Source: Anaerolineae bacterium (GTDB taxonomy: Bacteria; Chloroflexota; Anaerolineae; S140-20). Taken from it: a stretch of 64,000 nt of DNA. The translations under genes and the position numbers were made by a program. The stretch's first letter is position 1. Each line of letters starts with the position of its first letter. The notes below the pieces were generated by a model. That model made no database searches, had not been told where the DNA came from, and saw nothing but the letters and a program-made list of their open reading frames with translations. The stretch lies in assembly GCA_027021705.1 (NCBI GenBank), contig JALUTT010000099.1, forward strand, positions 32,001 to 96,000, read 5' to 3'. Positions 30,394 to 53,708 of the stretch are shown in pieces.

Positions 30394-31461
30394 TCAGGTC
30401 TTCTCCAGGAAAAAGATGTACTCGTGCTTGAAGACGTAGAACCCCCCCGCCAAGGCCCGGTAGCGCCAGAGGGCCTCCTGGGACCGCTTCCCCCGTGTCC
30501 CCTCGAAGTTCTTGACCACGATGCTCTTCAGCCGAAAGCCCACGGCCAGCGCCTCCTGCATCCCGTAGAAGCCCAACGGAATCCACTCCCCCCGGACATA
30601 CTTGTCCCCTATCACCACGACCATGAACCGCCCCGGCTCCAGAAGGGGATAGACGTGCTCCACCGCCTGCCGCCACCGGGCCAGGAAGGCTTCGACGCTG
30701 GGCGCGGCGCTCAGGTCCCGGGGATCGTCGCTGAAGCGGATGATGTCGTGGTAGGGGGGATGCATCACGACCAACTGAAAGCGCCGGACAGGCAGTCGGT
30801 CCAGGTCGAAGCTCGTCGCATCCCCCACGATGAGGGGGGTCTGCACATCGTAGGGGTTGGGCTCCTGGGCGACGCGGGCCTCCGCCCGGCGGGCCACCTC
30901 CGGGTTGAGCTCAATCCCCACGCCGTGCCGGCCCAGCCGGCGGCACTCGATGAGCGTCGTGCCGCTGCCCACGAAGGGGTCCAACACCCACTCGCCCCGC
31001 CGGGTGAAGCGCCACATCGCCTGACGGGGGATCTGAGGCACGAAGTTGCCCCAGTACCAGGCCAGGTGAGCACCGCTGGAGTCCCGCCGGTCAATGAGCC
31101 AGAGGCTGTCCGTCAGGACCTCCTCGTACTCCTGCCAGCGGTTCAGGTTGATCTCGTTGATGGGCTTGGTGCGCCGCTCGGTCAGCGCCCGGCGCAGCCG
31201 TCGGAGGTAGTAGCCCGCCCGCTCCCGCGTGTAGGCCGCCTCCGCCTGGGCAAGCTGCCGGTCCAGCAGGTCCAGCCGCACCGCCTCGACGTCGGTGTCG
31301 GCCGGCGTCGCCACCACCCCCAGCGGGTCCGCCGGGTCCTGGAGGGCCGCCCGCAGCCCACGCACCCGCTCCCGTAGCTCCGCCAGCGCCTCCACCCCCA
31401 AGAGCTCGTCCAACAGCGCCGCCAGCCGGCTCACGCGCAGGGGAACCCGCTGCCCATCCAC
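30394..31461 (-). CDS. Orphan N4/N6 DNA methyltransferase
   Basis: VLDPFVGSGTT (motif I) followed by MHPPY (motif IV); N-terminal helical extension. Confidence 0.8.
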   Translation of the reverse strand: MDGQRVPLRVSRLAALLDELLGVEALAELRERVRGLRAALQDPADPLGVVATPADTDVEAVRLDLLDRQLAQAEAAYTRERAGYYLRRLRRALTERRTKPINEINLNRWQEYEEVLTDSLWLIDRRDSSGAHLAWYWGNFVPQIPRQAMWRFTRRGEWVLDPFVGSGTTLIECRRLGRHGVGIELNPEVARRAEARVAQEPNPYDVQTPLIVGDATSFDLDRLPVRRFQLVVMHPPYHDIIRFSDDPRDLSAAPSVEAFLARWRQAVEHVYPLLEPGRFMVVVIGDKYVRGEWIPLGFYGMQEALAVGFRLKSIVVKNFEGTRGKRSQEALWRYRALAGGFYVFKHEYIFFLEKT

Positions 31462-31539: not shown

Positions 31540-32700
31540 TCACGCCTCCCGTTTCCCATCCAGCAGCTCCCGGAACAACGCTTCGTACCCCTGGGCCGTC
31601 CGCTCGGTGCTGAAGCGGGCCTCGATCTCCTCCCGGGGCCGCACGTACCGCTCCCGCTCCCGCAGGACGCGCAGGATGGCCTCCGCCAGGGAATCGGCGT
31701 CCGCCACAGGCACCACCTCCCCCATCCCCGTCTGGTAGACGGGCTGACGCACGCCGGGCAGGTCCGAGGCTACCGAGGGGGTGCCGCACAGCATCGCCTC
31801 GACTTGGACCAACCCGAAGGACTCGGTGGAGTTGAGGCTGGGCAGGACCAGCACGTCGCTGTTGGCGTAGAAGACGGCCATCTCCTCCGGGTTGAGGACG
31901 CCCAGAAACTCCCAGTGGTCCCGGTACCGCTCGAGGAGAGGGGCCAGCCGGCGGGCGTAAGCCTCCTCGCCTAGGACGTTCCGGTACTGCCCGGCGAAGA
32001 GGACCCGGGCGTTGGGGAACTCCTCCAGGATGCGGGGCAGCGCGTACAGCAGGTACTCCACCCCCTTCTCCGTCGCCAGCCGGGCCGCCATCCCGATGAC
32101 CCGATGGCCGTTGAGGCTGTGGCGCTGGGCGAAGGCGGCGACCGCTTCGGGCCGGGGATGGGGGATCTCCACCGGCGGCGGGATCACCCGCACCTTGTGG
32201 TAGAAGCGAGAGAGGTAGGGGGAGTGGCGGGCGAAGTCCTCGGTGTAGGCGACGATGACATCGGCCAGGCGGCCGGCCAGGTCGTTCATCACATCCACAA
32301 CCCGGTTGACGAAGCGGTTGAAGAGGCCGGGGGGTAGGGAGAGGTCGCAGTGGTAGGTCAGCGTCGTCGGCTTGCCCATCAGCCGGCCGCGCAGGGCGAC
32401 GCCGGCCGCGTCGAACTGGGGCAGGTGCAAGCTAATCACGTCGTGCTGCCGCACCAGCCGGGTGGCCAGCAGCCCGAAGGTGGGCATAATCACCCCCTTG
32501 CTGACGCGGAAGAGGACCGGAGCCCGCACCACCCGCACCCCATCCCGAACCTCCTCGCGGGGCAGCGTGCGGTCGTACTGGGAGGTCAGCACCGTCACCG
32601 TGTGGCCGCGCCGGGCCATCGCCCGGGCCAGCCGCTCCACGTAGATGGTCAGCCCGCTCACGTGGGGCCGGTAATAAGTCAGGACAAAGAGAATACGCAT
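31540..32700 (-). CDS. Glycosyltransferase family 4
   Basis: RLATEKG, ESFGLVQVEAM. Confidence 0.93.
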   Translation of the reverse strand: MRILFVLTYYRPHVSGLTIYVERLARAMARRGHTVTVLTSQYDRTLPREEVRDGVRVVRAPVLFRVSKGVIMPTFGLLATRLVRQHDVISLHLPQFDAAGVALRGRLMGKPTTLTYHCDLSLPPGLFNRFVNRVVDVMNDLAGRLADVIVAYTEDFARHSPYLSRFYHKVRVIPPPVEIPHPRPEAVAAFAQRHSLNGHRVIGMAARLATEKGVEYLLYALPRILEEFPNARVLFAGQYRNVLGEEAYARRLAPLLERYRDHWEFLGVLNPEEMAVFYANSDVLVLPSLNSTESFGLVQVEAMLCGTPSVASDLPGVRQPVYQTGMGEVVPVADADSLAEAILRVLRERERYVRPREEIEARFSTERTAQGYEALFRELLDGKREA

Positions 32701-32712
32701 CCCTCGTTTCCC

Positions 32713-33735
32713 TTATGCGAATAGCGCTTGGTTGTCCACTACCCAACGGTAGAGCCGTTCGACACCCTCCTCGACGCCGATCCGGGGCACCCACCCCAGC
32801 TCTCGGCGGGCCTTGCCGATGTCGGAGACGTAGATCCGCTGATCGCCGGGCCGCCAATCCCCATAGCGGACGGGGATCTCCCGCCCCATCAGCCGCTCCA
32901 GCAGCGGGCCGAACTCCGCCCAGACGGCCATCGTGTGCTCCGGCCCCCCGCCCACATTGTAGACCTGTCCGGCGGCCACCTCGATCCGCTCCACCGCCCG
33001 GTCGTACAGGTCCAGCAGGTCGTCAATGAAGAGCAAGTCCCGCACCTGCTTGCCGTCGCCGTAGATGGTGATGGGGCGGCCCATCACGGCGGCGATGACG
33101 AACCAAGCCACCCACCCTTGGTCCTCCACGCCGAACTGCCGGTATCCGTACACGCACGACTGCCGGAAGACGACGGTCCGCAGGCCGTAGATGCGGGCGT
33201 AGTCGCGGGTGTACTGGTCCCCGGCCCCCTTGGAGCAGCCGTAGGGGGAGTGGAAGTCCAGGGGCATCGTCTCGGGAATCCCCTGGGGGTAGTCCCGGTA
33301 GCGGTAGCGGGTCGCCTCCTCGAGGACGACCACCTCCTCCATCCCGCCGTAGACCTTGTTGGTCGAGGCGTAGAGGACGATGGGGTCCGATCCGGCGTGG
33401 CGGGCCGCCTCCAGGACGTTGAAGGTCCCCAGGGCGTTGACCTCGAAGTCGGTGCGGGGGTCGGCGACCGAGGTCGTGACGGCCACCTGGGCCGCCAGGT
33501 GGTAGATCACGTCCACGCCTCGGCTGACCTCCGCCAGCGTCGGATAGTCCCGCACGTCCCCCTGCACCAGCCGGAAGCTGTCCACGCCGTGGCGCTCCCG
33601 CAGCCAGGCCAGGTTCTTCTCCGTCCCGCGCCGGGAGAGGTTGTCGTAGATGATCACCTCCTCCCCCCGCCCGATGAGCCGGTGGGCCAGGTTGGCTCCG
33701 ATGAAACCCGCACCTCCTGTGATCAGTGCTTTCAT
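32713..33735 (-). CDS. NAD-dependent nucleotide-sugar epimerase (CDP-paratose 2-epimerase-like)
   Basis: TGGAGFIG, STNKVYG, SPYGCSK, VEDQGWVAWF. Confidence 0.9.
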   Translation of the reverse strand: MKALITGGAGFIGANLAHRLIGRGEEVIIYDNLSRRGTEKNLAWLRERHGVDSFRLVQGDVRDYPTLAEVSRGVDVIYHLAAQVAVTTSVADPRTDFEVNALGTFNVLEAARHAGSDPIVLYASTNKVYGGMEEVVVLEEATRYRYRDYPQGIPETMPLDFHSPYGCSKGAGDQYTRDYARIYGLRTVVFRQSCVYGYRQFGVEDQGWVAWFVIAAVMGRPITIYGDGKQVRDLLFIDDLLDLYDRAVERIEVAAGQVYNVGGGPEHTMAVWAEFGPLLERLMGREIPVRYGDWRPGDQRIYVSDIGKARRELGWVPRIGVEEGVERLYRWVVDNQALFA

Positions 33736-33765: not shown

Positions 33766-34797
33766 TCACTCTGCCTGGACCTTGGCCTGGAGCCCCCGCC
33801 AGGAGAGGCTACGTCGGGCCAGGACGACCAACCCCCAGAGGCAGAGGGCGACGTACTGAAAGGTGTGGAGCACCAAGGCAAAGCTGACCGCCTGGGCCTT
33901 CGACACCCCAAAGGGCGTGACCAGTGCCTCTCGGGCCAGGACGTGGTAGACCCCCAGGCTGCCGGGCGAGGCGGGGATGGCCAGCCCCAGGTTGGTCAGG
34001 ACGAGGACCAGGCCGCCCGCCGTCAGAGGAGGGTGAGACCAGAAGGCGGTCAGGGTGAAGTAGGGGATGCCCAGGGCCGAGAGCCAGACCATGGCGGACC
34101 AGAAGAAGATGGCCCCCATCCGCCGCTGCCGCAGGACGGCCAGGCCGGCGATTCCTCCCCACAACCACCGGACCCACGCCTCGGGGTCCTGCCACCGCCA
34201 GCGCCGGAGGAGCGGAAGGCGTCCCCCCAGCCACCGCAAGGGTCGAAGCGCCGAAAGGCGGACCATCAGCCGCCGCAACAGCCGCTCCCCCCGCTCCCCC
34301 TGACCGGCCAACCAGACCAGCCCGATCAGCGTTCCCACCGCCGCGCCGCCGGCCACCAGCCCTGCCCGGACCATCCAGACCGGCAGCGCCATCGCCAGCA
34401 GCAGCCCCACCATCATCAGGAAGACCATCAGCAGGTCCAACACCCGCTCGACGACGACGGTGGAGAGGGCCTGGGTCGCCGGAACCGGGGTCCAGAGGCC
34501 GATGAGGAAGGGGCGGACCAGGTCGCCGGCCCGGAAGGGGAGCACATTGCTGAAGAGGTAGCCCACCCCCATCGCGTCGGCGCTGGCCCGAAAGCCGACC
34601 TCGGGTCCCAGCAACCGTTGCCAGCGGATCACGCGGGCCGCCATCGAGAGGGCCAGGGCCAGAAAGGCGGGCACCAGCGCCCGGTAGTCGGCCCCTGCCA
34701 GCGCTGCCCACAACTCCCGCCAGGCTACCCCCCGCATCGCCAGGAGCAGGGCCACCAGGCTGATGCCCATCCCTATCCAGAATCGCCGTTGTCGCAT
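33766..34797 (-). CDS. Lysylphosphatidylglycerol-synthase TM/flippase-like membrane protein
   Basis: RW..LL, NVLPFRAGD, VVVERVLD, PASPGSLG. Confidence 0.85.
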   Translation of the reverse strand: MRQRRFWIGMGISLVALLLAMRGVAWRELWAALAGADYRALVPAFLALALSMAARVIRWQRLLGPEVGFRASADAMGVGYLFSNVLPFRAGDLVRPFLIGLWTPVPATQALSTVVVERVLDLLMVFLMMVGLLLAMALPVWMVRAGLVAGGAAVGTLIGLVWLAGQGERGERLLRRLMVRLSALRPLRWLGGRLPLLRRWRWQDPEAWVRWLWGGIAGLAVLRQRRMGAIFFWSAMVWLSALGIPYFTLTAFWSHPPLTAGGLVLVLTNLGLAIPASPGSLGVYHVLAREALVTPFGVSKAQAVSFALVLHTFQYVALCLWGLVVLARRSLSWRGLQAKVQAE

Positions 34798-39258: not shown

Positions 39259-41106
<1,848 letters not shown>

Positions 41107-41210
41107 CGGCAGCCCTTGGGGTTGCCCGTGGGGCGAGGGGCAAGGCGACGAGGCGACGCAGGAGCAAGGCAACGGGGCGACCAGGCAACGGGGCACCGAG
41201 GGATGAGGTG

Positions 41211-42431
41211 ATGAAGGGGGGAGTGCGGATCGTGATGGTCGGTCCCTTCGGCCTGCGGCCCAAGGGGACGATGAGCGTTCGGGCCCTGCCCCTGGCCCGC
41301 GCCCTGGCCGACCGGGGCCACCAGGTCACGCTGCTCTTGCCTCCTTGGAGCTATCCCCAGGACAGCGGCCGGCGCTGGCAGGAGGAGGGCGTGACCGTCG
41401 AGAACGTCCCGCTGCCCCCCCTCCCCTCCTTCTGGCCCCTGACCCTCACCGGACGGCTGGTCCGGCGCGTCCTGGCCCTGCGCCCCCAGGTCGTCCACTG
41501 CTTCAAGCCCAAGGCCTACGCCGGTCTCGTCCACTACCTCCTCTGGTGGCGACGCCGCCTCCCCCCTGGGCGCGGGGGCCCCTCCCCCCGCCTGGTGGTG
41601 GACACCGATGACTGGGAGGGGCCGGGGGGCTGGAACGAGGTGGTGGACCCATCCACGGGCCGTCCCACCTACTCCTGGCCCCAGCGCCGTCTCTTCGCCT
41701 GGCAGGAGCGGTGGGGGCTGACCCACGCCGACCGGATCACCGTCGCCAGCCGGGACCTGGAGACCCTCGTCTGGAGCCTGGGCGTTCCCCCGGAGCGCGT
41801 CGTCTACCTGCCCAACGGCGTAGGCGTCCCGCCTCCCTCGGATCTTCGGCCCCGCCGACGGCAGGAAGGGCCACCCACCCTCCTCCTCTACACCCGCTTC
41901 TTCGAGTTCGACCCCGCCCGCCCCCTGCGCGTCCTGCAACGGGTGCGGGAGGCGGTGCCCCAGGCCCGGCTCCTGGTCGTGGGGAAGGGGCTCTTCGGCG
42001 AGGAGCAGACGCTGCTCCGGCTGGCCCAGGAGATGGGGCTGACCCAGGCCGTCCACTACGCCGGATGGGTCGAGCCCCAAGCGCTGGGGGGCCCCTTCGC
42101 CGAGGCCGACCTGGCCCTCTACCCCTTCGACGACACCCTGATCAACCGGACCAAGTGTGCCGTCAAGCTGCTGGACCTGATGGCCTGGGGGCTGCCCGTC
42201 GTCGCCGACGCCGTCGGTGAGAACGCCCAGATGATCGTCCACGGCGAGAGCGGATGGCTGGTGCCGCCGGGGGATGTGGAAGCGATGGCCACCGCCGTGA
42301 TCCACCTGCTGCGACAGGCCCCGCTCCGACGGCGGCTGGGCGAGGGGGCTCGACGACGGGTGATGGCCCGCTACACCTGGGAACACCTAGTCGCATACGC
42401 GGAGGAAGCTTATGGATTCACCCGCCGATGA
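41211..42431 (+). CDS. Glycosyltransferase family 4
   Basis: GT-B pattern: ALADRGHQV, LPNGV, KLLDLMAWGLPVV. Confidence 0.88.
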   Translation: MKGGVRIVMVGPFGLRPKGTMSVRALPLARALADRGHQVTLLLPPWSYPQDSGRRWQEEGVTVENVPLPPLPSFWPLTLTGRLVRRVLALRPQVVHCFKPKAYAGLVHYLLWWRRRLPPGRGGPSPRLVVDTDDWEGPGGWNEVVDPSTGRPTYSWPQRRLFAWQERWGLTHADRITVASRDLETLVWSLGVPPERVVYLPNGVGVPPPSDLRPRRRQEGPPTLLLYTRFFEFDPARPLRVLQRVREAVPQARLLVVGKGLFGEEQTLLRLAQEMGLTQAVHYAGWVEPQALGGPFAEADLALYPFDDTLINRTKCAVKLLDLMAWGLPVVADAVGENAQMIVHGESGWLVPPGDVEAMATAVIHLLRQAPLRRRLGEGARRRVMARYTWEHLVAYAEEAYGFTRR

Positions 42432-43049: not shown

Positions 43050-44027
43050 ATGATCCTGGTCACCGGCGGTACCGGCTTCATCGGCTCGGCCCTGGTCCGG
43101 GCTCTGCTGCAGGAGGGCCATCGGGTGCGGGTGCTCACCCGCCGTCCCGACGGCCATCCTTTGCTCTCCCGGCCGGGCGTCGAGCCCTTCGTCGCCGACC
43201 TGACCGACCCGGCCTCGCTGACCGGCGTCGCCGAGGGGGTCGAAGCCGTCTTCCACCTGGCCGGTCTCCTAGGCGGGAAGAGCGCCGACCCGACCGCCTA
43301 CGAGGCCCTACACGTCCGGGGCACCGGCCATCTGCTGGAGCAGTTCGCGGGCCGCTTCCTGGTGCGCTTCGTCCACTGCAGCACCACCGGCGTCCTCGGC
43401 CCCATCGCCCACCCGCCGGCCGACGAGAGCCGGCCTCCGCGCCCCTCCAACCTTTACGAGCGAACCAAGGCGGCGGGGGAACGGCTGGTCCTGGAGCGGG
43501 GGCGGCAGCAGGGCACGCCCGTCACCGTCATCCGGCCCGGGATGGTCTACGGGCCGGGGGACCTGCACCACCTGGGGCTCTTCCGGGCCGTTCAGCGCGG
43601 CTACTTCGTCCTCATCGGCGGTGGGCGCAGCACCCTCGATCCCGTCTACATCGCCGACGTGGTGCAGGGGCTGCGCCGGGCGCTGGAGAACGAGCAGGCG
43701 GTGGGCCAGGTCTACCACATCGCCGGCCCCCGCCCGGTCACCGTGCGGGAGCTGGCCGAGGCCATCGCCCGAGCCCTGGGCCGGCCCTTCCGCCCGCCGA
43801 CGGTGCCCCGCCCGCTGGCCTTCGCCGGGGCCTGGCTGATGACCGGCCTGCTCCGCCCGTTGGGGGTCCAGCCCCCCCTCACGCCCGGCCGCGTCCGCTT
43901 CCTGACCGAGAACCGGGGCGTCTCCATCGAGAAGGCGCGGCGCGAACTGGGCTACGAGCCGGCCTACTCCCTGGAGGCCGGCCTGCGGGAGACCGTGGCC
44001 TGGTACCGCCGGCACGGATACCTGTGA
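43050..44027 (+). CDS. NAD-dependent epimerase/dehydratase
   Basis: TGGTGFIG, YERTK. Confidence 0.92.
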   Translation: MILVTGGTGFIGSALVRALLQEGHRVRVLTRRPDGHPLLSRPGVEPFVADLTDPASLTGVAEGVEAVFHLAGLLGGKSADPTAYEALHVRGTGHLLEQFAGRFLVRFVHCSTTGVLGPIAHPPADESRPPRPSNLYERTKAAGERLVLERGRQQGTPVTVIRPGMVYGPGDLHHLGLFRAVQRGYFVLIGGGRSTLDPVYIADVVQGLRRALENEQAVGQVYHIAGPRPVTVRELAEAIARALGRPFRPPTVPRPLAFAGAWLMTGLLRPLGVQPPLTPGRVRFLTENRGVSIEKARRELGYEPAYSLEAGLRETVAWYRRHGYL

Positions 44028-45076
44028 GCGACAAATTGCGAATTGCGAATTGCAATTTGCAATTTGCAATTTGCAACTTGCAACTTGCCACTTGCCACTT
44101 GCAACTTGTAACTTGCAACCTGAAACTGCCCGTGAACGCTTTTGAGAGGTTCTCCGTCATCATCCCGTCCTACAACAGCGCGGCCACCATCCGGGCCTGC
44201 CTGGACTCGGTGCTGGCCCAGGAGACGCCGCTGCCCTACGAGATCATCGTCGCCGACAGTTCCGACGACGCCACCCCTCGGATCATCCGGCAGCGCTACG
44301 GCGACCGGGTGCGGCTCCTCCGCTTCCCCCGCCGGACCGATCCGGGCACCGCCCGCAACACGGCCATCGCCCAGGCCCAGGGTGACCTGCTCCTCTTCAC
44401 CGACGCCGACTGCATCGTGCCCCCCGACTGGGCAGCGCGGATGGTCCAGGCCCACCGGGAACAGGACTGCCGCATCGTCGGCGGAGCGGTGGTGAACGGC
44501 AACCCGGAGAGCCTCATCAGTTGGGCCGGCTACCTGAAGGAGTTCAGTGAGTACCTGCCCGACGCCCGGCCCGGCTTCGTCCACAGCCTGCCCACCTGCA
44601 ACATCTCCTACCGGCGGGAGGTCTTCGAGGAGTACGGCGGCTACCAAGGCGACTACTACCCCCAGGAAGACTACCTCTTCCACTGGCGGCTGATCAAGGG
44701 GGGCGAGCGCATCTACTTCGACCCGACCATCCAGGTGCGCCACGTCCACCGGGCCACCCTGCGCGACTACCTGCGCCACAGCCACCGCTTCGGCGTCGTC
44801 ACCTCCCAGGTGCTCAAGATCACCGACCTGCCGGGCCACTGGTTCGCCCGCCGACCCTGGCTCGCGCCCCTCTTCATCCCGTTTCTGCCCTTCATCAAGT
44901 TCACCCGGACGACGCTGCGGACCTGGCGGGTCAACCCGGAGCTGATCCGCCGGCGCCCCCTCGTCCTCCCCCTCCTCTTCGTGGGCCTGCTGAGCTGGGA
45001 GATCGGCTTCATCCAGGGCGTCTATACCGACCACCGACCGCTGACCGCCGACCGAGGCGGGCGGACCGAGGGTTGA
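44024..45076 (+). CDS. Glycosyltransferase family 2 (start 44024 by GTGA overlap, or 44132)
   Basis: SVIIPSYN, ARNTA, FTDADC, QED. Confidence 0.88.
   Translation: MSDKLRIANCNLQFAICNLQLATCHLQLVTCNLKLPVNAFERFSVIIPSYNSAATIRACLDSVLAQETPLPYEIIVADSSDDATPRIIRQRYGDRVRLLRFPRRTDPGTARNTAIAQAQGDLLLFTDADCIVPPDWAARMVQAHREQDCRIVGGAVVNGNPESLISWAGYLKEFSEYLPDARPGFVHSLPTCNISYRREVFEEYGGYQGDYYPQEDYLFHWRLIKGGERIYFDPTIQVRHVHRATLRDYLRHSHRFGVVTSQVLKITDLPGHWFARRPWLAPLFIPFLPFIKFTRTTLRTWRVNPELIRRRPLVLPLLFVGLLSWEIGFIQGVYTDHRPLTADRGGRTEG
44035..44120 (+). repeat. Heptamer (TTGCAAY)n tandem repeat
   Basis: About 12 degenerate AT-rich copies in a GC-rich context. Confidence 0.9.
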
Positions 45077-45081
45077 GACCG

Positions 45082-47739
45082 ATGGCAGAGGGTTCGAGGC
45101 TCGGGGTCACAAGCGTTGGACGCGCGGGGCTGGAGATCGCCCTCCACGGGGTCCGGCTGGCCCTGGTGACGGACTACCGCCCCCTGCTGGCCTTCGGGCG
45201 GGAGTACCTGGGGCCGCTGCTGGTGACCCATCGGGCGGAGCCCGAGGTGACGGTCTCCTTCCGGTTCGACGCCGATCCGCTGCCCCCGGCGACCTCGGCC
45301 ACCGGCCTGCGGCGGGCCGGACGGCGGCTCTGGCTGGACGACGGGCGGGTCTACCAGCCGGAACTGCTGGGGTTCCCCGGCCTCGCCCTCCTGACCCGGC
45401 GCCGGGGCAACCGCTGGACCGTCCGGGCGACCTACCGCCCCCCCTCCCGCCTGGCCCGCTGGCACCACCGGCTGCGCGGCCCCGATCCCCGCCTCGTCGC
45501 CACCCTGCTCTACTACCTGGCCTACTTCCCCCTGCTGGCCTACCTGGAGGCGCACCGGGGCTGGACGCCCCTCCACGCGGCCGGCGTCGCCCTCCCCGAA
45601 GGGGGCCTCCTCATCGCCGGCCTGCCCGGCTGCGGCAAGACGACCCTCGCCCTCGCCTTCGCCGCCCGGCCCGGGGCCCGCCTCCTCTCCGACAACCTGG
45701 TGCTCACCGACGGCCGGCAGCTCTACGCCTGCCCCGAACCCATCCACCTGGACGACGGCCTCCGCCCTCTGCTGCCCGACCTCGCCGACCTCCTGGTGGC
45801 CGAGGAGCGGACCGTCACCCACGGGCGGCGCGACTACCGCCCCCGCCCCCACCGCCAGGCCGCCGCGACGCCCCCCCGCTGGCTCCTCTTCCCCCTCTTC
45901 GCCGACGAGGTCCGGCTGGCCCCCCTCTCCCCGGAGGCCGCCCTGGACCGGCTGCTGACCATCGGCGAGCAGACGAAGGAGCTGGCCGCCTACACCGCCC
46001 AGCGGGCCGTCTGGGGGCTCCTGGACGATGCGCCGGGGTGGGCGGGCCGGGTCCGAGAGCGGCTGACCGACCTGGTGGAGCGCCTGGCCTGCTACGAGCT
46101 GCACCTACCGCCGGGCCGCCCCCTGCCCCCCCTCACCGCCGAGGTGCTGACGGCCCTCACCGCCGTTCCCGCCTCCTCCGGTCCGGGAACCCCTGCCACC
46201 TCCCCGCAAGCCCCCCTGGCCGCCGGCCAAGCGCCGAACCGCCCGGCTGAGAGGGGGAAACCCCCTTCGGGGGCTGCAAGTCAGCCCGCAGGGCTCTCTT
46301 CCCTTAGCCCGGACCTTCCAGGTCCGGGCCAGGCCGGGCAGACACCCCCCGCCTTCGACGCCCGGACCTTGGACCCCCGCGCCCTGGAGGCGCTGGAGGC
46401 GCTGGCCGCCCAACCCTTCCTGGCCTGCCCCCCCGTGGCCCTGCCCGACCTACACCTCAAGCCCCGCCTGGAAGCGCCCTCCAGCCTGGCCACGGCGACC
46501 CGGGAGCACCTGGTCCTGGGGCTGACCAGCCCCTCCCCCGGCTGCGGGATGGCGCTGGCCGTGACCCCGCTGGGGGAGGCCGACCTGAGCGCCGAACGGC
46601 TGGACCGCCTCTTCGCCCACCTGGGGGCCGTGCTGGACCCCGACCGGTCATCCCCGGCCATCGGCGAGGAGGCCCTGGACGCGGTGCTGCTGCGGGGAGC
46701 CGCCGCTTGGGCGGAGCGGCTGGGGAGGAGCGAAGCGCTGCTGAAGGCCATCGAGGGGGGAGGCGCTGCCTTCGCGCCCGAGGAGGTGGAGGCCCACGGC
46801 CCGGCCATCCTGGCGACGGTGCCGGCCGCCTTCCGCCCCGTCGCCCGGCGGGAGTTCGGCCTGGTGGGGCGGGGCAACCATTTCCTGGAGGTGCAGGTGG
46901 TCGAGGCGGTGCTGGACCCGGCCACGGCGGCGGCCTGGGGGCTCGCCGTGGGCCAGGTGGTGGTCCTCTTCCACGCCGACTCCGGCCACCTGGGGGCCAT
47001 CGTGGGCCGCCTCTTCGCCCACCGGCGCAAGAACAGCCGCCGGGGGCGGCTCATCGAATGGCAGATCAAGCTGCCCTACCACCTGCGGGGGCTCCGCTCA
47101 CCGGGGGTTGCCTGGAGCCGAGCCCGCTACTTCCTCCCCCGCCGCTGGCTGCCCATCCCGGCCGACTCGGAGGAAGGACGGCGCTGCCGATGGGCCCTGG
47201 GCGCTGCCACCAACTACGCCTTCGCCAACCGGCTGGCCGTCCTGGCAGCGCTGGAGCAGGCCCTGCAGGCGGTTTGGGGCGAGCGGGTCGGCCCCCTCCG
47301 CCTCCTCTACGACGCGCCCCACAACGGCATCGCCCGGGAGCGCATCGGCGGCCAGGACCTCTGGGTCCACCGCCACAACGCGGTGCGCGTCACCCCGCCC
47401 TCCCGCCTGCCGCCCGACAGCCCCTACCGGGCCACCGGCCACCCCGTGCTGCTGCCGGGAACCCATCGCACCGCTTCCTTCCTGTGCGCCGGCGATGAAG
47501 GGGCTGCCCACACCCTCCACTCGGCCGGCCACGGGGCCGGGGAGACGGCCTTGGCCCTGGGCCGCCCCCTGGAGGCCCCGGACCGCCGGACCCGCCTCTA
47601 CCGCTACCGGCGGGGCCTGGTCGAGGAGAGCCCCCCCCTGAGCGACGAGGGCGTGGAGGCAGTGGTGCAGACGCTGCACCGGTGGGGGATCTGCCGGCCG
47701 GTGGTCCGCCTGCGCCCCGTCGCCACGCTCAAGGGGTAG
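45082..47739 (+). CDS. Fusion protein: HPr-kinase-like P-loop domain + RtcB-fold domain
   Basis: LHAAGV...GLPGCGKTT...LLSDN; then LPDLH, GCG, GNHFLEVQ, NYAFANR, YDAPHN, PVLLPG, GHGAG and terminal RLRPVATLKG. Confidence 0.82.
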   Translation: MAEGSRLGVTSVGRAGLEIALHGVRLALVTDYRPLLAFGREYLGPLLVTHRAEPEVTVSFRFDADPLPPATSATGLRRAGRRLWLDDGRVYQPELLGFPGLALLTRRRGNRWTVRATYRPPSRLARWHHRLRGPDPRLVATLLYYLAYFPLLAYLEAHRGWTPLHAAGVALPEGGLLIAGLPGCGKTTLALAFAARPGARLLSDNLVLTDGRQLYACPEPIHLDDGLRPLLPDLADLLVAEERTVTHGRRDYRPRPHRQAAATPPRWLLFPLFADEVRLAPLSPEAALDRLLTIGEQTKELAAYTAQRAVWGLLDDAPGWAGRVRERLTDLVERLACYELHLPPGRPLPPLTAEVLTALTAVPASSGPGTPATSPQAPLAAGQAPNRPAERGKPPSGAASQPAGLSSLSPDLPGPGQAGQTPPAFDARTLDPRALEALEALAAQPFLACPPVALPDLHLKPRLEAPSSLATATREHLVLGLTSPSPGCGMALAVTPLGEADLSAERLDRLFAHLGAVLDPDRSSPAIGEEALDAVLLRGAAAWAERLGRSEALLKAIEGGGAAFAPEEVEAHGPAILATVPAAFRPVARREFGLVGRGNHFLEVQVVEAVLDPATAAAWGLAVGQVVVLFHADSGHLGAIVGRLFAHRRKNSRRGRLIEWQIKLPYHLRGLRSPGVAWSRARYFLPRRWLPIPADSEEGRRCRWALGAATNYAFANRLAVLAALEQALQAVWGERVGPLRLLYDAPHNGIARERIGGQDLWVHRHNAVRVTPPSRLPPDSPYRATGHPVLLPGTHRTASFLCAGDEGAAHTLHSAGHGAGETALALGRPLEAPDRRTRLYRYRRGLVEESPPLSDEGVEAVVQTLHRWGICRPVVRLRPVATLKG
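46241..46329. repeat. REP-like hairpin cluster read through in frame as the interdomain linker
   Basis: CCCCC-TTCG-GGGG, AGCCC-GCA-GGGCT, GCCCGGACC-TTCCA-GGTCCGGGC. Confidence 0.55.
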
Positions 47740-47749
47740 GAGGGGAGCC

Positions 47750-49135
47750 GTGCGCTTCTTCCGCCACGTCCTAAGCACCTTCTTGGCCGAGATCGCCATC
47801 GTCGGCCTCAACCTGCTCCTGGGCGTCCTGACCGCCCGGGTGCTGGGGCCGGAGCGCCGGGGCATCCTGGCCCTGGTGATGACGCTGCCCGTCACCCTGG
47901 TCACCTTCGCCGACCTGGGCATCTCCCGGGCCAACATCTACCTCATCGGCCGGCGGGGGCGCTCCCCCCAGCAGATCGCCTCCAACGCCCTCTTCTTCGC
48001 CCTGGCGACGGGGGCGTTCCTGGGGCTGGGCCTCTGGCCGGTCCGGGGGCTGGCCCTCCGCACGCTGCTACGGGGGCTCCCGGCCCGCTACCTGGCCCTC
48101 ATCCTGGTGCTGACCCCCTTCCTGCTCCTCTACACCCACTGGCTGGCGATCCTGCGGGCCTTCCAGCGCTTCGAGCTCTTCAACCTGATCCGGCTGCTGA
48201 TGCCCCTGAGCCTGTTGGGGATGATGGGGGCGGCGCTCCTCGTCTTCCACGGCGGGATCGGCTGGGCGACGGCGGCCTACGGCGCGGGGGTCCTCCTGGC
48301 CGTGGGGATCAGCCTCGCCATCGTCGGGGCCATCACCCGCCCCCGGCTCCGCTTCGACCGCTCCCTGGCCGGCGAGGCGATGGCCTACGGCCTCAAATCC
48401 TACCTCCAGAACCTGGTCAGCCACCTCACCTACCGGCTGGACCTCTACCTGGTGGCCTACTTCCTCAGCCCGCGCGAGGTGGCCTTCTACGCCATCGCCA
48501 CCTCGGCGGCGGAGCTGGCCTGGTACATCCCCAACTCGGTGGGGCTGGTCCTCTTCCCCAAGCTCTCCGCCACCGAGGAGGAGCGCATCCACCCGCTGAC
48601 GGCGGAGATCAGCCGCCACACCCTGCTGATCACCCTGCTGGCGGCCGGCGTCGTCCTGCTGGCCGGTGGCGTCGGCATCCCCCTGCTCTACGGGGCCGAC
48701 TACCGGCCGGCCGTCGGTCCGATGGTCATCCTGATGCCCGGCGTGGCGACGATGGCCCTCTACAAGGTGCTGAGCCGCAACTTCTCCAGCCGCAACCGGC
48801 AGGAGGTCTCCATCGCAGCGGCCGCTTTGGGGCTGGCCCTCGACGTGCTCCTCAACGTCATCTTCATCCCCCGGTTGCGGGTGATGGGGGCGGCTCTGGC
48901 CTCCACCATCGCCTACAGCCTGGCGGCGCTGGTCCTGCTGGAGGCTTTCCGGCGGGAGTCGGGGCTGAGCCGGGAGGCGGTGCTCCGGCTGCGGCAGGAC
49001 GACCTGCAGCGGTACGCGGAGTTGGTGGCGACGGTCCGGGCGGTTCTCGGCCGATGGCCGACCGCCGATGGCCGATGGCCGACCGCCGACGGACGACGGC
49101 CGACGGCCGACCGCCGATGGCCGACCGTGGACTGA
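47750..49135 (+). CDS. Wzx-type polysaccharide flippase (MOP family)
   Basis: ARVLGPE.RG, YRLDLYLV, PRL.VMGAALAS; many TM helices; tail derived from heptamer repeats. Confidence 0.88.
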   Translation: MRFFRHVLSTFLAEIAIVGLNLLLGVLTARVLGPERRGILALVMTLPVTLVTFADLGISRANIYLIGRRGRSPQQIASNALFFALATGAFLGLGLWPVRGLALRTLLRGLPARYLALILVLTPFLLLYTHWLAILRAFQRFELFNLIRLLMPLSLLGMMGAALLVFHGGIGWATAAYGAGVLLAVGISLAIVGAITRPRLRFDRSLAGEAMAYGLKSYLQNLVSHLTYRLDLYLVAYFLSPREVAFYAIATSAAELAWYIPNSVGLVLFPKLSATEEERIHPLTAEISRHTLLITLLAAGVVLLAGGVGIPLLYGADYRPAVGPMVILMPGVATMALYKVLSRNFSSRNRQEVSIAAAALGLALDVLLNVIFIPRLRVMGAALASTIAYSLAALVLLEAFRRESGLSREAVLRLRQDDLQRYAELVATVRAVLGRWPTADGRWPTADGRRPTADRRWPTVD

Positions 49136-49161
49136 GGACCGTGGACCGTGGACTGTGGACT

Positions 49162-50026
49162 GGCGAGGAACACGAAGGACACCAAGAACTCAAAGAGCAC
49201 AAAGCGGTACGAAGGGCTGGAGCCCCGCCCCCCCATCCGCTCAATCCGTTCCCCAATCCGCTGACAGCTCGTCCGCCCCGGCCACGGCGGAGGACACAAA
49301 GGACACCAAGAGCGCAAAGAGCACAAAGCGGTGCGAAGGGCTGGAGCCCCGCCCCCCATCCGTTCAATCCGCTCCCCAATCCGCTGACAGCTTGTCCGCC
49401 CCGGCCACGGCGAGGAACACGAAGAACACCAAGAACGCAAAGAGCACAAAGCGGTGCGAAAGGCTGGAGCACCGCCCCCCCATCCGTTCAATCCGCTCCC
49501 CAATCCGTTGACAGCTCGTCCGCCCCGGCCACGGCGGAGGACACAAAGGACACCAAGAGCGCAAAGAGCACAAAGCGGTACGAAGGGCTGGAGCACCGCC
49601 CCCCCATCCGCTCAATCCGTTCCCCAATCCGCTGACAGCTTGTCCGCCCCGGCCACGGCGGAGGACACAAAGGACACCAAGAGCGCAAAGAGCACAAAGC
49701 GGTACGAAAGGCTGGAGCCCCGCCCTCCCATCCGCTCAATCCGTTCCCCAATCCGCTGACAGCTTGTCCACCCCGGCCACGGCGAGGAACACGAAGAACA
49801 CCAAGAGCGCAAAGAGCACAAAGCGGTACGAAAGGCTGGAGCACCAACCCCCCATCCGCTCAATCCGTTCCCCAATCCGTTGACAGCTCGTCCGCCCCGG
49901 CCACGGCGGAGGACACAAAGGACACCAAGAGCGCAAAGAGCACAAAGCGGTGCGAAAGGCTGGAGCACCGCCCCCCCATCCGTTCAATCCGCTCCCCAAT
50001 CCGTTGACAGCTTGTCCGCCCCGGCC
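49162..50026. repeat. Tandem array of 7 x ~124-bp units
   Basis: Units start at 49162, 49286, 49409, 49533, 49657, 49781 and 49905; no unique spacers. Confidence 0.95.
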
Positions 50027-50069
50027 TGAAGCGCCGGGGCTGGGAAAGAAGAAACCCAGCACCGCCTGT

Positions 50070-50994
50070 TTACGGCGGTGCACAAGGGATGGGGGAGACG
50101 CACCGAAACCCGACGTTGACGCTCGAGATGTACGGGACGACCCTGACGCACACCGCACAGCGGGCGATCTCCTGAAAGTCGTACCACGAGCCGCCACGCA
50201 CAACGCGCGCTACCTCGTCACCTGGGGAGGGATCCTCCCGACCGTCGTCCGGGCGGTAGGGATAACCGAAGGCCGGCCGCCGCCAGTCCGGCCCCCACAG
50301 GCTCAACGTCCATTCCCACACATTCCCCGCCATGTCGGCCGCGCCATAGGGGCTATCCCCGCCCGGCAGGATCCCCACAGGTGAGGGTTGCTCGAGCCCG
50401 GCCTCGCCCGTATTGGCCCTGCCCTCTTCCCACCTGTCCCCCCAGGGCCAAGTCCGGCCGTCGGTACCCCGAGCTACCTTCTCCCATTCGGCCTCCGTCG
50501 GCAGTCGAACGATCTCGGGTGTCAGGTTCAGGGTCTGAAGTTGTCCCTCCTGCCAGACCTGTACCCTGGAACCCGTAGCTCGAAACCGCTCCTACAGCCA
50601 TCGGCAGAAAGCCATCGCTTCGTACCAGGTCACCCCCACCACCGGCTGGTTGGGAGCATTAAAGCGGGGATCGTGCCAGAAGTCGGGCCGGCCGGTCCGC
50701 TGCCACTCCCGGCGCGGCTTTCCCCGCCGCCAGGCCCAGCCGGAGCTCTCTTCGCCCCCCCACCAGGTCGGGTCGTCGTACCCACCGGCCTCGATGAAGC
50801 AGCGATATTGGGCGTTGGTGATGGGGTAGCGGCTGATCAGGAAGGCGGGCAGATCCAGTTGATGCCGGTCCCGCTCCCCCTCCAGCCATCCCCATAGGAG
50901 CTCGAGGAGTTCCTCTTGAGACAACCCTTCAGCGGTATACGTGCCGTCTTCCACCTTCTGCTGTACCCACGCTTTCCATCGCTCCACTTCCTCA
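50070..50994 (-). pseudogene. FGE-sulfatase (SUMF1/CLec-fold) domain gene, 5'-truncated with an in-frame TAG
   Basis: One frame: SRYPITNAQY...PVVGVTWYEAMAFCRWL*(50592-50594)ERF...RLPTEAEWEK.ARG...DMAGNVWEW...RGGSW...GFRCV; 5' end abuts a family B repeat. Confidence 0.85.
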
Positions 50995-51233
50995 GCGGTC
51001 CTTAATTCGTGTATTCGTGCCCCATTCGTGGACGGTCGGTCTCCCTATCTCCAAAGATATGGGGAATCACCAGGCTTGACAGCGGTGATTCCCCACAAGT
51101 GAGCGAGAGAGTGATCCGTAGCAGGCCGTCCACGAATTTCTCACAAATGCACGAATGAGGCGGCCCTTAATTCGTGTATTCGTGCCCCATTCGTGGACGG
51201 CTCGTCTCCCTATCTCCAAAGATATGGGTAATC
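50995..51233. repeat. Family B palindromic element, 1.5 tandem copies with an intervening hairpin
   Basis: 50995-51068 duplicates about 51160-51233; 51093-51212 matches 14661-14780; hairpin TGGGGAATCACC...GGTGATTCCCCA. Confidence 0.85.
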
Positions 51234-51254
51234 TAATCACCGGGCGTGACAGCG

Positions 51255-51283
51255 TTGACGGAGGGGCGGAGTTGCGGTAAACT
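51255..51283 (+). promoter_or_regulatory. Candidate sigma70 promoter
   Basis: TTGACG-N17-TAAACT upstream of the response regulator. Confidence 0.55.
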
Positions 51284-51351
51284 CCTGTGAGCAACTACCC
51301 GCACCATCGGCAGCGGCAGCGCCGCCTGCCCGACCGCGAAGGAGTTCCCTG

Positions 51352-52011
51352 ATGGCACCCATCCGTGTCCTGCTGGCCGACGACCACGCCGTGGTCCGCA
51401 AAGGTATCCGTGAGTTCCTCGAAGCGCTGGGAGAGATCGAGGTGGTGGCCGAGGCGGCCGATGGCGAGGAGGCCAAAGCCCTCATCCGCCAGCACCGGCC
51501 CGACGTCGCCATCCTCGACATCCGCATGCCCAAGGCCACCGGCATCGAGGTCACCCGCTGGATCCGGGATCAGGAGATCCCCATCGGCGTGCTCATCCTG
51601 ACCGCCTACGACGACGATCCCTTCGTCCTGGCCGCCCTCCAGGCCGGTGCCAACGGCTACGTGCTCAAGACGGCCGAGGCCGAGGAGATCGTCGCCGCCG
51701 TCCAGGCCGTCCACCGGGGGCAGTCCGCCCTCGACCCGGTCATCGCCCGCAAGCTGATGGCCCACCTGGCCAGCCCCGCCTCCACGGCCAGGCCGGTCGA
51801 GCCGCTGACCGCCCGCGAACGCCAGGTCCTGGAGTTGGCCGCCCGGGGCCTGACCAACCGCGCCATCGGTATGGAGCTGGGGATCAGCAACCGCACCGTC
51901 CAGGGCCACCTGGCCAACATCTACGCCAAGCTCCAGGTGGGCAGCCGCACCGAGGCGGTGACCAAAGCCCTCCGCCTGGGCATCATCCGCCTGCCGGAGG
52001 AGGCGTCGTGA
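51352..52011 (+). CDS. NarL/LuxR-family response regulator
   Basis: LLADDH, ILDIRMP, LTARERQVL HTH. Confidence 0.95.
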   Translation: MAPIRVLLADDHAVVRKGIREFLEALGEIEVVAEAADGEEAKALIRQHRPDVAILDIRMPKATGIEVTRWIRDQEIPIGVLILTAYDDDPFVLAALQAGANGYVLKTAEAEEIVAAVQAVHRGQSALDPVIARKLMAHLASPASTARPVEPLTARERQVLELAARGLTNRAIGMELGISNRTVQGHLANIYAKLQVGSRTEAVTKALRLGIIRLPEEAS

Positions 52012-53708
52012 GGAAGAGGTGGGCTTCCGTCAGCCTGCGCAGCCTCCAGGTCCAAATCCTCCTCTGGACCATCCTCCCCCTCACCATCCTCCTCATCGCC
52101 CTCTCCCTCACCGGCATCCGCAGCCACCAACACTCGATGCGCCTCCTGGTCGCCGAACGGGACGCCGGGCTGGCCCGGCTGCTGGCCGACGACATCGCCA
52201 CCGCGCTGGCACGCTACACCACCGGCCTGCAGGTCCTGGCCGCGTCCGAGGCCCTGCGCCACGGCGACAGCCAGACTGTCAAGATCGCCCTGACCGAGGC
52301 CAGCCACCAGATGGACGGGATGGTCCTCCTGACCGTGGACGCCTCAGGACGGGTCCTGACCGGCCCCCCGGTGCTGCCCGCCTGGACCGATGAGGCCGTC
52401 CGCCACCTCCTGACCGCCCCCCAGGCGATGCACGCACCCGCCGTCACCACGATGGCCGACCAACGGACCCTCGTCTGGAGCATTCCCCTGGGGCAGGAGG
52501 GCTCAACGTCGAGCCCTCGGAGTTGGCTGCTGGCCGGCCTGCCCCTGGACGCGCTGTCCCTGGCCCGGCTGCGCGAGACCAGCCACCTGAGCCAGGTGGG
52601 AACCGTCGTCCTGGTGGACCAAGAGAAGCGTGTCCTCTACGCCAGCGGCCCCCTGGTGGACGGCGAGACCTTGGACGACGGGCCAGGGGTCGCGCCCGCC
52701 CTGGCCGGTGAGCACGGTGTCCTCTTCGTCCCCACCCCCCAGGGCGAGTTGGTCGTCGCCTACACCCCCGTCCCCGGCCCCGGCTGGGCCCTTGTCCTGC
52801 GCGAACCGTGGGAGTCGCTGGCCGCCCCGCTCCTGCGCTTCGACCGGGTGATGCCCTTCGTCCTGCTCACCGCCGCCGTCGTTTCCCTCCTCACCCTCTT
52901 CTTCGGCCTGCGCTACGTCGTCCGCCCCCTGCAGAAGCTGGAGGCCCAAGCCCGCCAGATCGGCCTGGGGGACTTCGAGGCCGTCGCCGACCCGGTGGGG
53001 GGCGTCAAGGAGATCGAAGAGCTGCGCCGCACCCTCGACCAGATGGCCCACCAGGTCCAGCGCTACCAGGATGCCCTGGAAGCCTACCTGGGCGCGATGA
53101 CCCGGGCCCAGGAGGAGGAACGGGCCCGGCTGGCCCGGGAGCTGCACGACGAAACGGTCCAGACCCTCATCGCCCTCAACCAGCGGGTCCAGATGGTGCA
53201 GCGGACCCTGGAACGGGATCCGCCCCATGCCGCCGAGCGGCTGGCCGAACTGCGGACGATGCTCAGCGAAGCCGTCGAGGAAGTGCGTCGCTTCAGCCGG
53301 GCCTTGCGCCCCCTCTACCTGGAGGAGCTGGGGCTGGTGCCGGCCCTGGAGATGCTGGCCCGAGAGGCCGGGGCCTTCTTCCGCTACAGTGGCCCCCTCC
53401 GCCGTCTGACCGCTGAGCAAGAGCTGGCCTTCTACCGCATCGCCCAGGAGGCGTTGAGCAACGTCCAGCGCCACGCCAACGCCTCCCACGCCGAGATCGA
53501 ACTGACCTTTGCCCAGGACAGGGTGCTCCTGCGGGTGTGGGACGACGGGAGGGGCTTCGCCGTCCCGGAACGCCTCACCGACCTGACCCGCAACGGTCAC
53601 TTCGGACTGATGGGGATGTACGAACGGGCCCAGCTCATCGGGGGCCGGCTGACCATCACCTCAACCCCCGGCCACGGAACGACCGTCGAAGTGGAGCTCC
53701 CCCTCTGA
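52008..53708 (+). CDS. Sensor histidine kinase (Cache-like, HAMP, HisKA_3)
   Basis: Two TM segments, EERARLARELHDETVQ, QEALSNV, DDGRGF. Confidence 0.93.
   Translation: MRKRWASVSLRSLQVQILLWTILPLTILLIALSLTGIRSHQHSMRLLVAERDAGLARLLADDIATALARYTTGLQVLAASEALRHGDSQTVKIALTEASHQMDGMVLLTVDASGRVLTGPPVLPAWTDEAVRHLLTAPQAMHAPAVTTMADQRTLVWSIPLGQEGSTSSPRSWLLAGLPLDALSLARLRETSHLSQVGTVVLVDQEKRVLYASGPLVDGETLDDGPGVAPALAGEHGVLFVPTPQGELVVAYTPVPGPGWALVLREPWESLAAPLLRFDRVMPFVLLTAAVVSLLTLFFGLRYVVRPLQKLEAQARQIGLGDFEAVADPVGGVKEIEELRRTLDQMAHQVQRYQDALEAYLGAMTRAQEEERARLARELHDETVQTLIALNQRVQMVQRTLERDPPHAAERLAELRTMLSEAVEEVRRFSRALRPLYLEELGLVPALEMLAREAGAFFRYSGPLRRLTAEQELAFYRIAQEALSNVQRHANASHAEIELTFAQDRVLLRVWDDGRGFAVPERLTDLTRNGHFGLMGMYERAQLIGGRLTITSTPGHGTTVEVELPL

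Follow-up and report, generated by a model that had tools for sequence, protein, structure and literature searches.

A fused kinase and RtcB-like gene between glycosyltransferase and flippase genes

The stretch of DNA analysed here (hereafter the window) comprises 64,000 nucleotides (nt) of contig JALUTT010000099.1 from an Anaerolineae bacterium of the phylum Chloroflexota (assembly GCA_027021705.1, referred to as G000). On its forward strand, at 45082..47739, it carries an open reading frame (ORF) that encodes a protein of 885 residues, or 888 residues if translation starts at 45073. A preliminary description of the locus had recognized in this ORF a P-loop kinase domain joined to a domain with the fold of RtcB, the textbook ligase of RNA repair and splicing, and both assignments are borne out by the profile and fold comparisons given below. 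The protein consists of a kinase half (residues 1-357, 45082..46152), a low-complexity linker rich in proline, alanine, glycine and serine (approximately residues 358-429, 46153..46368) and a divergent RtcB-family domain (residues 430-885, 46369..47739). The ATG at 45082 is preceded by GAGGG 9 nt to its 5' side and lies 5 nt beyond the TGA (45074-45076) of the upstream frame, which encodes a family 2 glycosyltransferase (GT2), while a gene for a Wzx-like flippase begins at 47750, 10 nt past the fusion stop, just as the described placement with small gaps would have it.

With a G+C content of about 68% in the window, long spurious ORFs are abundant; the frame 45073/45082..47739 nevertheless belongs to a real gene. 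We compared the contigs of four public sequencing runs (X1-X4) over positions 44900-47900. Run X1, possibly the source of the assembly, covers the whole interval with zero differences, and eight contigs of run X2, which comes from another study, tile all of it with 21 substitutions and 0 gaps; coverage by X3 and X4 is confined to parts. Insertions or deletions are not listed for any of the compared contigs, and the fusion frame stays open once the listed X2 substitutions are applied. The indel-free tiling together with the open frame rules out that the fusion arose from a frameshift in the assembly; it is genuine and present in more than one strain. The linker of about 70 residues is predicted to be disordered, with a predicted local distance difference test score (pLDDT) below 50 from residue 366, and has no counterpart in relatives, whose aligned kinase ends there and which instead have a stop codon and an overlapping start codon at this position. 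A search with Pfam found no NTP_transferase, GHMP or CDP-alcohol phosphotransferase domain in the fused ORF. A predicted complex of the kinase half with the RtcB-like half scored 0.00, which has no bearing for or against pairing.

The RtcB-like half and the predicted fate of its active-site residues

Residues 440-885 match the Pfam family RtcB (PF01139) with an E-value of 2.4e-53 and 182.4 bits against a gathering score of 27, and the best solved relative is Pyrococcus horikoshii RtcB (PDB entry 1uc2, E 8.9e-34). The AlphaFold model of this half (pLDDT 80) superposes on ten RtcB entries with Z-scores of 35-43 and root mean square deviations (rmsd) of 2.3-3.2 Å over 371-393 residues, the next unrelated chain scoring a Z of 4.4. 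The score with the RtcB RNA-ligase equivalog model NF007153 is 80.1 bits and stays below its cut-off of 407.

In P. horikoshii RtcB, PMC9745838 assigns metal 1 to His234, His329 and Cys98, metal 2 to Cys98, Asp95 and His203, the nucleophile to His404, the reading of the guanine to Glu206 and Lys480, and contacts to the GTP phosphates to Asn202 and Asn330. The strand with the 5'-OH end is held by Asn202, Arg238, Arg190, Gln194 and His242, and changing the residue of Escherichia coli RtcB that is equivalent to Arg238 has a 200-fold effect on sealing, according to PMC8051266. The motifs SPSPGCG, HADSGH, HRHNA and GHGAGE and the terminal LRPVATLKG, to which the preliminary description had drawn attention, are all present in the translation and align to P. 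horikoshii RtcB as it stated. With the RtcB ligases (P. horikoshii PH1602, E. coli RtcB, human RTCB) the domain shares fold, Pfam family and the histidine nucleophile, the predicted GMP acceptor H817 (nt 47530-47532) corresponding to His404, as well as Cys98 (C488, nt 46543-46545), His234 (H631), His329 (H747), Glu206 (E603), Lys480 (K884), His203, Asn202 and Asn330. Five of six metal ligands are kept in the fused protein, the exception being Asp95, which is replaced by Ser485. It further differs from the ligases at four of the contacts to the 5'-OH strand, where Arg238 is Gly, Arg190 is Val, Gln194 is Glu and His242 is Ala.

In order to place these changes within the family, we compared 118 aligned sequences, of which 11 are of the canonical type, 29 form the close clade of the fused protein and 78 are other divergent members. 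Cys98, His203, His234, His329, His404, Asn202, Glu206 and Lys480 occur in all canonical-type (11/11) and all close-clade sequences (29/29), so that the retention of the Cys, His and Asn ligands and of the guanylylated His proposed for the single protein extends to its clade; among the 78 others, His203, His234, His329 and Glu206 are kept in 78, His404 in 77, Asn202 in 74, Cys98 in 72 and Lys480 in 66. The position of Asp95 is Asp in 11/11 canonical-type sequences, Ser in 29/29 of the close clade and never Asp in the 78. Loss of the RNA-contacting residues likewise holds throughout the close clade: Arg238 (11/11 canonical-type) is Gly in 28/29 and, among the 78, Gly in 48 and Arg in 8; His242 (His in 8 and Tyr in 3 canonical-type sequences) is Ala in 27/29 and elsewhere Gly (21), Tyr (11) or Lys (10); Arg190 (8/11) is Ile, Leu, Val or Ala in 29/29; and Gln194 (8/11) is Gln in 0/29, the last two positions being variable in the other divergent sequences. 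The change of HGAGR to HGAGE is a different matter, as it is found in the fused protein and one other sequence but is not a feature of the clade: Arg408, present in 11/11 canonical-type sequences, is kept in 21/29 of the close clade and in 32/78 of the rest. New motifs conserved across the close clade are PDLHxKPxLExPSS, HADSGxLGA and VHRHNA. As judged from these alignments, the predicted parts for guanylylation are shown to be kept in the RtcB-like half, while the side chains predicted to hold a polynucleotide are gone.

The N-terminal half belongs to the PEPCK/HprK superfamily

The LHAAG, GLPGCGKTT and SDN motifs noted earlier are all found in the translation of the N-terminal half, with the Walker A sequence GLPGCGKT at residues 180-187 (nt 45619-45642). 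On the sequence level the half reaches no curated family threshold of Pfam or NCBIfam: the matches are to HprK_rel_A (TIGR04352; E 1.7e-9, 37.2 bits against a cut-off of 200), HprK_rel_B (TIGR04355; E 6e-6, 25.5 bits against 200), a profile of FomB-type kinases (E 4e-4), Hpr_kinase_C (PF07475; E 0.16, 11.9 bits against 33.3) and PEPCK_ATP (PF01293; E 0.5, 9.4 bits against 26.5). The AlphaFold model (pLDDT 85.9) finds its best whole-chain structure match in ATP-dependent phosphoenolpyruvate (PEP) carboxykinase (PEPCK), with Z 15-16 over about 290-300 residues of the predicted structure, and residues ~160-365 superpose on the catalytic domains of HprK/P (entries 3tqf, 1ko7, 1kkl, 1jb1, 1knx and 2qmh) with Z 12.6-13.2 and rmsd 2.4-3.5 Å over 129-139 residues. 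When a profile of 17 kinase sequences was searched against the PDB, the best match was the kinase-1a/P-loop segment of Thermus thermophilus PEPCK (E 0.0065), HprK following at E 0.41. Since fold matches to both PEPCK and HprK/P were obtained and the 17-member profile scores best on PEPCK, the name PEPCK/HprK-superfamily kinase is accurate. The half was previously described as HprK-type; its P-loop fold and its likeness to HprK stand, but an exclusive assignment to HprK does not, as it is equally close to PEPCK.

With HprK/P and the HprK-related kinases (TIGR04352, TIGR04355 and the lasso-peptide kinases) the half shares the P-loop fold and the LHA...G.PG.GK[ST] motif; unlike them, it has a PEPCK-like N-terminal domain rather than the N-domain of HprK, a conserved SDN motif and scores below threshold. 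Compared with ATP-dependent PEPCK, it is about 150 residues shorter and gives no evidence for an oxaloacetate/PEP site. H165, G180, G183, G185, K186, N205, D210, E219 and R249 are invariant across the 17 kinase sequences, and the half is predicted to be a P-loop protein with kinase-competent features. No partner genes of the HPr/phosphotransferase system or of lasso-peptide pathways were detected among the neighbours scanned; the genome was not searched for ptsH. A word-based search with the kinase half returned 10 proteins, one of which carries the label PF27840.

Separately, the kinase family shows a long, aromatic-rich conserved helix, IYYLVYFPLxWWLERERGW, at residues ~136-159 (window 45490-45560), which might serve as an interfacial membrane anchor.

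A two-gene module with a lineage-specific fusion

Among 34 homologues found in an index of 5.8 billion proteins, the window protein is the only one of 885 residues, the other 33 being stand-alone RtcB-like proteins of 487-523 residues. We identified 16 close loci in species-representative genomes, all titled as Anaerolineae, Thermoflexia or Chloroflexota metagenome-assembled genomes (MAGs); for three of these loci the contig is that of a same-class relative of G000. In 16 of 16 a kinase gene lies directly upstream of the RtcB-like gene, the two being separate ORFs in different frames, and at least 10 of the loci have a candidate start of the RtcB-like gene 4-14 nt ahead of the kinase stop. The fusion that the preliminary description had proposed to look for in reads and relatives is thus found free of indels in an independent run, whereas in the relatives its halves are separate genes. 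Apart from the contig of the window, a metagenome scan with the kinase alignment returned 20 loci, several of them the same DNA as genome loci; where these run past the kinase, the RtcB-like gene comes next in 16/16. Two of the metagenome kinase loci are distant, with 26% kinase identity. The fusion is therefore a lineage-specific state of a two-gene module whose genes are adjacent and translationally coupled in relatives.

An exhaustive phmmer search with the fused protein against 1.84 billion representatives yielded 2024 hits at E <= 1e-3, 130 of them at E <= 1e-30, and the best 150 hits were inspected. Among these, P0060 (755 residues) is a second colinear fusion of kinase and RtcB-like domain from another subclade, with 28% identity in an alignment of 825 columns (E 6e-66); the RtcB half of P0060 reaches 297 bits and keeps Arg238 and Arg408. 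In P0097 (996 residues), also among the best 150, a MOP flippase is joined to an RtcB-like domain, and both P0097 and its nearest row P0101 carry Asp at the position of Cys98.

Two long RtcB representatives, P0174 and P0191, were considered as further fusions and rejected, as they are canonical RtcBs split by inteins, the intein-like inserts lying at the Cys98 motif. Open frames of about 1000 residues are likewise seen for the canonical RtcB of the class relatives G001, G004, G007 and G016.

The module is embedded in a conserved cassette of glycan and lipid genes

The neighbouring genes of the window listed in this paragraph all lie on the forward strand. Upstream of the fusion the window carries a GlmS-type glutamine-fructose-6-phosphate aminotransferase (39259..41106; Pfam SIS and GATase), a family 4 glycosyltransferase (GT4; 41208..42431; Pfam), a gene of the SDR epimerase/dehydratase family (HpnA/OleD-like; 43050..44027) with 41% identity to the SDR of the cassettes in tblastn and 143 bits to HpnA, below the cut-off, and the GT2 gene (44099..45076, its start being uncertain within ~44045-44150; Glycos_transf_2, E 4e-35), whose best NCBIfam hits, MftF-like and EpsD-like, are both below cut-off. 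The flippase gene downstream (47750..49135) is of the MOP family (Wzx/MurJ-like; Pfam Polysacc_synt_3, Polysacc_synt and MurJ). The gene order is therefore GlmS, GT4, SDR, GT2, fusion and MOP flippase. The upstream neighbour had originally been taken for a single GT2 ORF of 680 residues; its GT2 nature is confirmed, but the frame divides into the SDR gene and the GT2 gene.

In relatives the cassette comprises radical SAM (rSAM), SDR, GT2, kinase, RtcB-like, flippase, GT-C-type glycosyltransferase, UbiA and PEP-synthase-like genes. A GT2 gene is present within 4 kb upstream in 14 of the 16 close loci, none being detected at L023 and L029, and the flippase gene directly follows the RtcB-like gene in 12/12 close genome loci that extend far enough. 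Radical SAM/SPASM genes occur in 11 of the 16 close loci, UbiA-family genes in 10 and PEP-synthase-like genes (PigC/RedH/Rph-like) in 9, most of the other loci ending too early; a methyltransferase is among the cassette genes as well (11 of the 16 cassettes have radical SAM/SPASM and methyltransferase). At L016 a PMT_2-type GT-C of about 495 residues (E 1.8e-14) lies between flippase and UbiA. Further members are geranylgeranyl-reductase-like proteins, CrtI/CrtD-like flavoproteins, a weakly CrtC-like protein and a family 1 glycosyltransferase (GT1). In the metagenome loci that run on, the flippase follows in 14/15. Another class of the phylum has a pair, with 36% RtcB identity, that lies between a GT2 gene and genes for DegT, a CapD-like dehydratase and a GT4. 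Across the ORFs of loci L030-L073, which are mostly those of canonical archaeal RtcB and of weak hits in other phyla, the kinase profile hidden Markov model found a kinase only at L072. The suggested association of the module with glycan genes is hence conserved rather than accidental.

The combination of GT2, flippase and GT-C is the pattern of polyprenyl-phosphate-sugar pathways such as the Arn and Gtr systems. Given the UbiA, GT-C, geranylgeranyl-reductase-like and PEP-synthase-like genes, the cassette points to a polyprenyl- or isoprenoid-lipid-linked intermediate. The glycan genes of the polysaccharide operon described before are therefore there, but the setting is not that of a plain polysaccharide operon.

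Two features of individual cassettes were also recorded. NF004520, a family of 854-residue proteins named 'sugar epimerase family protein', matches the cassette SDR with its N-terminal part and the PEP-utilizer with its C-terminal part (L011 3750-6395 and 12771-13811; L012 5116-6807), which hints that the two may be fused in other organisms and could work together. At L011 7692-8986 (reverse strand), identical to L018 11353-12620, the flippase is in two pieces (231 and 215 residues; two tblastn segments), and the gene may be frameshifted or broken in this MAG.

The divergent RtcB-like proteins form a separate clade

A FastTree phylogeny of 103 rows places the 91 divergent rows in one clade with a local support of 100, apart from the canonical-type rows, and six kinase- or flippase-linked rows are spread over both main subclades of this clade. 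The check by phylogeny that the preliminary description had called for thus separates the divergent proteins from canonical RtcB, in a tree whose rows are the best hits to the fused protein. G000 also encodes a canonical RtcB at another site, which reaches 585 bits with the Pfam model against 182 for the fused protein.

Proposed function and alternatives

Since a real fusion of a kinase and a divergent RtcB domain lies inside cell-envelope sugar and lipid genes, this branch of RtcB is suggested to act on something other than RNA. We propose that the kinase phosphorylates a lipid-linked or sugar substrate and that the RtcB-like domain activates this phosphate with GMP and probably ligates it, a reading to which we assign a probability of about one half. 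In a first step, the kinase would phosphorylate a hydroxyl of a non-nucleic-acid substrate X, most likely a sugar on an intermediate that is linked to polyprenyl phosphate or an isoprenoid lipid on the cytoplasmic side of the membrane. The RtcB-like domain would then guanylylate itself on His817 with GTP and Mn2+ and transfer GMP to the substrate phosphate, yielding G(5')pp-X. Finally, a second hydroxyl could attack to form a phosphodiester with release of GMP, an outcome we narrowly favour, or GDP-X could be released for another enzyme, and the MOP flippase of the adjoining gene would export the product. We infer all of these chemical steps and the identity of X, and with them the phospho-ligation of a surface glycan named in the preliminary description, whose interpretation is partly supported and remains the leading idea. 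That all members of the 91-row clade are GTP-dependent His-GMP ligases which, together with a PEPCK/HprK-type kinase, build phosphodiesters on lipid-linked envelope glycoconjugates is a more tentative proposition, and we regard it as possible.

Several points weigh against the proposed function. It is drawn from gene context and residue patterns, and the known RtcB enzymes, to our knowledge, all work on nucleic-acid ends. Without Asp95, the binding of metal 2 and the use of GTP could be weakened, and the retention of Asn202, which contacts both GTP and the 5'-OH strand, cannot separate ligation from mere activation. A very basic insert conserved in the clade, AHRRKN..RGR..W..K, could bind RNA, a membrane or an anionic sugar alike. 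The flippase fusion P0097 may be inactive, as Asp replaces Cys98, although another arrangement of the metals is also possible. No flippase follows the module at L094, and the gene after the pair at L072 has no flippase match in Pfam. In G000 the remaining cassette genes are scattered over other contigs, with UbiA and PEP-synthase-like genes on C50, rSAM on C181, CrtC-like on C113 and GT1 on C40. The phylogeny was obtained with FastTree only, so that its support values are approximate, and its rows were chosen as best hits to the fused protein. Lastly, the pair is rare and patchy across the sampled class, being present in 8/401 genomes of a class-wide sample, in 3/40 nearest relatives and in 0/3 genomes of the window genome's own family, a distribution that fits an accessory, transferable cassette.

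The alternative that survives best, though we consider it rather unlikely, is that the module carries out activation only: X-OH would be converted to X-P and on to GDP-X with release of pyrophosphate, a neighbouring GT2 or GT-C would use GDP-X, and the RtcB-like domain would never ligate. Stopping at the GDP-activated product is an equally simple outcome, and the steps of RtcB are separable, as PMC8051266 describes mutants of E. coli RtcB that guanylylate but do not seal. With all four of the replaced 5'-OH-strand contacts lost, no second substrate site is evident, the order SDR-GT2-kinase-RtcB resembles a supply pathway for NDP-sugars, and the scanned cassettes showed no gene for a conventional nucleotidyltransferase. 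An analogy is offered by enzymes such as HldE and Fkp, in which a kinase and a nucleotidyltransferase are fused. Ordinary nucleotidyltransferases are plentiful, however, so that the recruitment of an RtcB fold needs a reason, and the fusion of a flippase to an RtcB-like domain accords better with a final step on a lipid-linked substrate than with a soluble enzyme in a supply role. Moreover, the new clade-invariant polar residues near the active site, namely K, E and SS of PDLHxKPxLExPSS, D and S of HADSG and H and N of HRHNA, could form a new acceptor site.

It is improbable, in our estimate, that the protein is still a nucleic-acid enzyme, in which kinase and ligase would heal, seal or cap RNA or DNA ends and the link to envelope genes would be regulatory or coincidental. 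This would agree with the ends on which every characterised RtcB acts, the intact guanylylation apparatus, the basic insert and the retention of Arg238 and Arg408 in the RtcB half of P0060, and according to PMC13166195 a partner-coupled paralogue, RtcB2-PrfH, still repairs RNA. It is at odds with the clade-wide loss of Arg238, Arg190, Gln194 and His242, with a synteny with GT2 and flippase genes that is kept across families and classes and even includes a flippase fusion, with the canonical RtcB already present in the genome and with the lack of a match to defence families: the PADLOC defence models gave only matches of P-loop length at E 5e-4 or weaker, and none for the RtcB half or for the pair of a relative. 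RtcB requires a 3'-phosphate and a 5'-OH, and the nucleic-acid role is further disfavoured since a 5'-kinase as partner would destroy the 5'-OH that RtcB requires; we know of no 3'-kinase. Least probable of all is the modification of a peptide or protein, with phosphorylation of Ser or Thr by an HprK-type kinase and attachment of a group by the RtcB-like domain, as in a pathway resembling those of peptides made on the ribosome and modified after translation (RiPPs) or in protein phosphoglycosylation: a remote kinase relative, P0044, is fused to a lasso-type Transglut_core3 domain, radical SAM/SPASM and methyltransferase genes accompany the module and the best family hit of the GT2 is MftF-like, but the cassettes are tightly packed, with no room for a precursor gene and no RiPP recognition element (RRE) or PqqD hit among the genes scanned (small ORFs were not searched systematically), the kinase fold is PEPCK-like and two-domain with FomB-like as its nearest named small-molecule relative, and lipid-linked chemistry is indicated by the flippase, GT-C and UbiA genes.

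Relation to known systems and implications

What sets the divergent protein apart from the RtcB ligases, beyond its residues, is that it is always partnered with a kinase and situated inside envelope gene clusters. It resembles the RtcB2-PrfH ribosome-repair module in that an RtcB paralogue is specialised by an obligatory neighbouring partner gene; as PMC13166195 describes it, however, that module pairs RtcB2 with a release-factor homologue and acts on 16S rRNA, whereas here a kinase and glycan or lipid genes are the neighbours. An analogy in the way of working can also be drawn with other enzymes. HldE, Fkp and the phosphotransfer enzymes of CDP-alcohols and teichoic acids phosphorylate, activate with a nucleotide and transfer a phosphate ester in glycan loci, although their folds are unrelated. 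A full-text literature search brought up no paper that places RtcB in glycan or lipid loci or pairs it with a kinase, in keeping with the earlier statement that no such system has been described; most subscription journals lie outside its coverage, so that absence there is no proof.

The analysis delineates a sizeable, unstudied branch of RtcB in which the chemistry appears to be kept and the grip on RNA dropped, and which is tied to a kinase by gene overlap and two independent fusions and, in one case, fused to a flippase. We know of no RtcB member that acts beyond nucleic-acid ends. If the proposed function is true, it would represent a new enzyme logic for phosphate esters in cell-surface molecules and give annotators reason to drop the label 'tRNA-splicing ligase' for such genes. 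Were the more tentative proposition on the whole 91-row clade true, this would be the first use of the RtcB fold outside nucleic acids and a third route to phosphodiester-linked glycan decorations, beside the CDP-alcohol and NDP-sugar-phosphate transferases. The fused protein of the window offers a convenient single-polypeptide entry for biochemistry.

Further observations

On contig C50 of G000 (L096 4190-11673), the UbiA and PEP-synthase-like genes adjoin genes for FabF-/FabH-type ketoacyl synthases on the opposite strand. In the window itself, positions 49136-51350 downstream of the flippase hold only ORFs without Pfam matches; they are followed, 2 kb downstream of the flippase, by a LuxR-type response regulator and a dCache/HAMP histidine kinase (51352-53708, forward strand). 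Farther upstream, an N6/N4 DNA methylase (30394-31461, reverse strand; N6_N4_Mtase, E 1.9e-18) lies beside a GT4 gene (31540-32700), which is followed in the same stretch by an SDR gene (32713-33735) and an LPG_synthase_TM gene (33766-34797).

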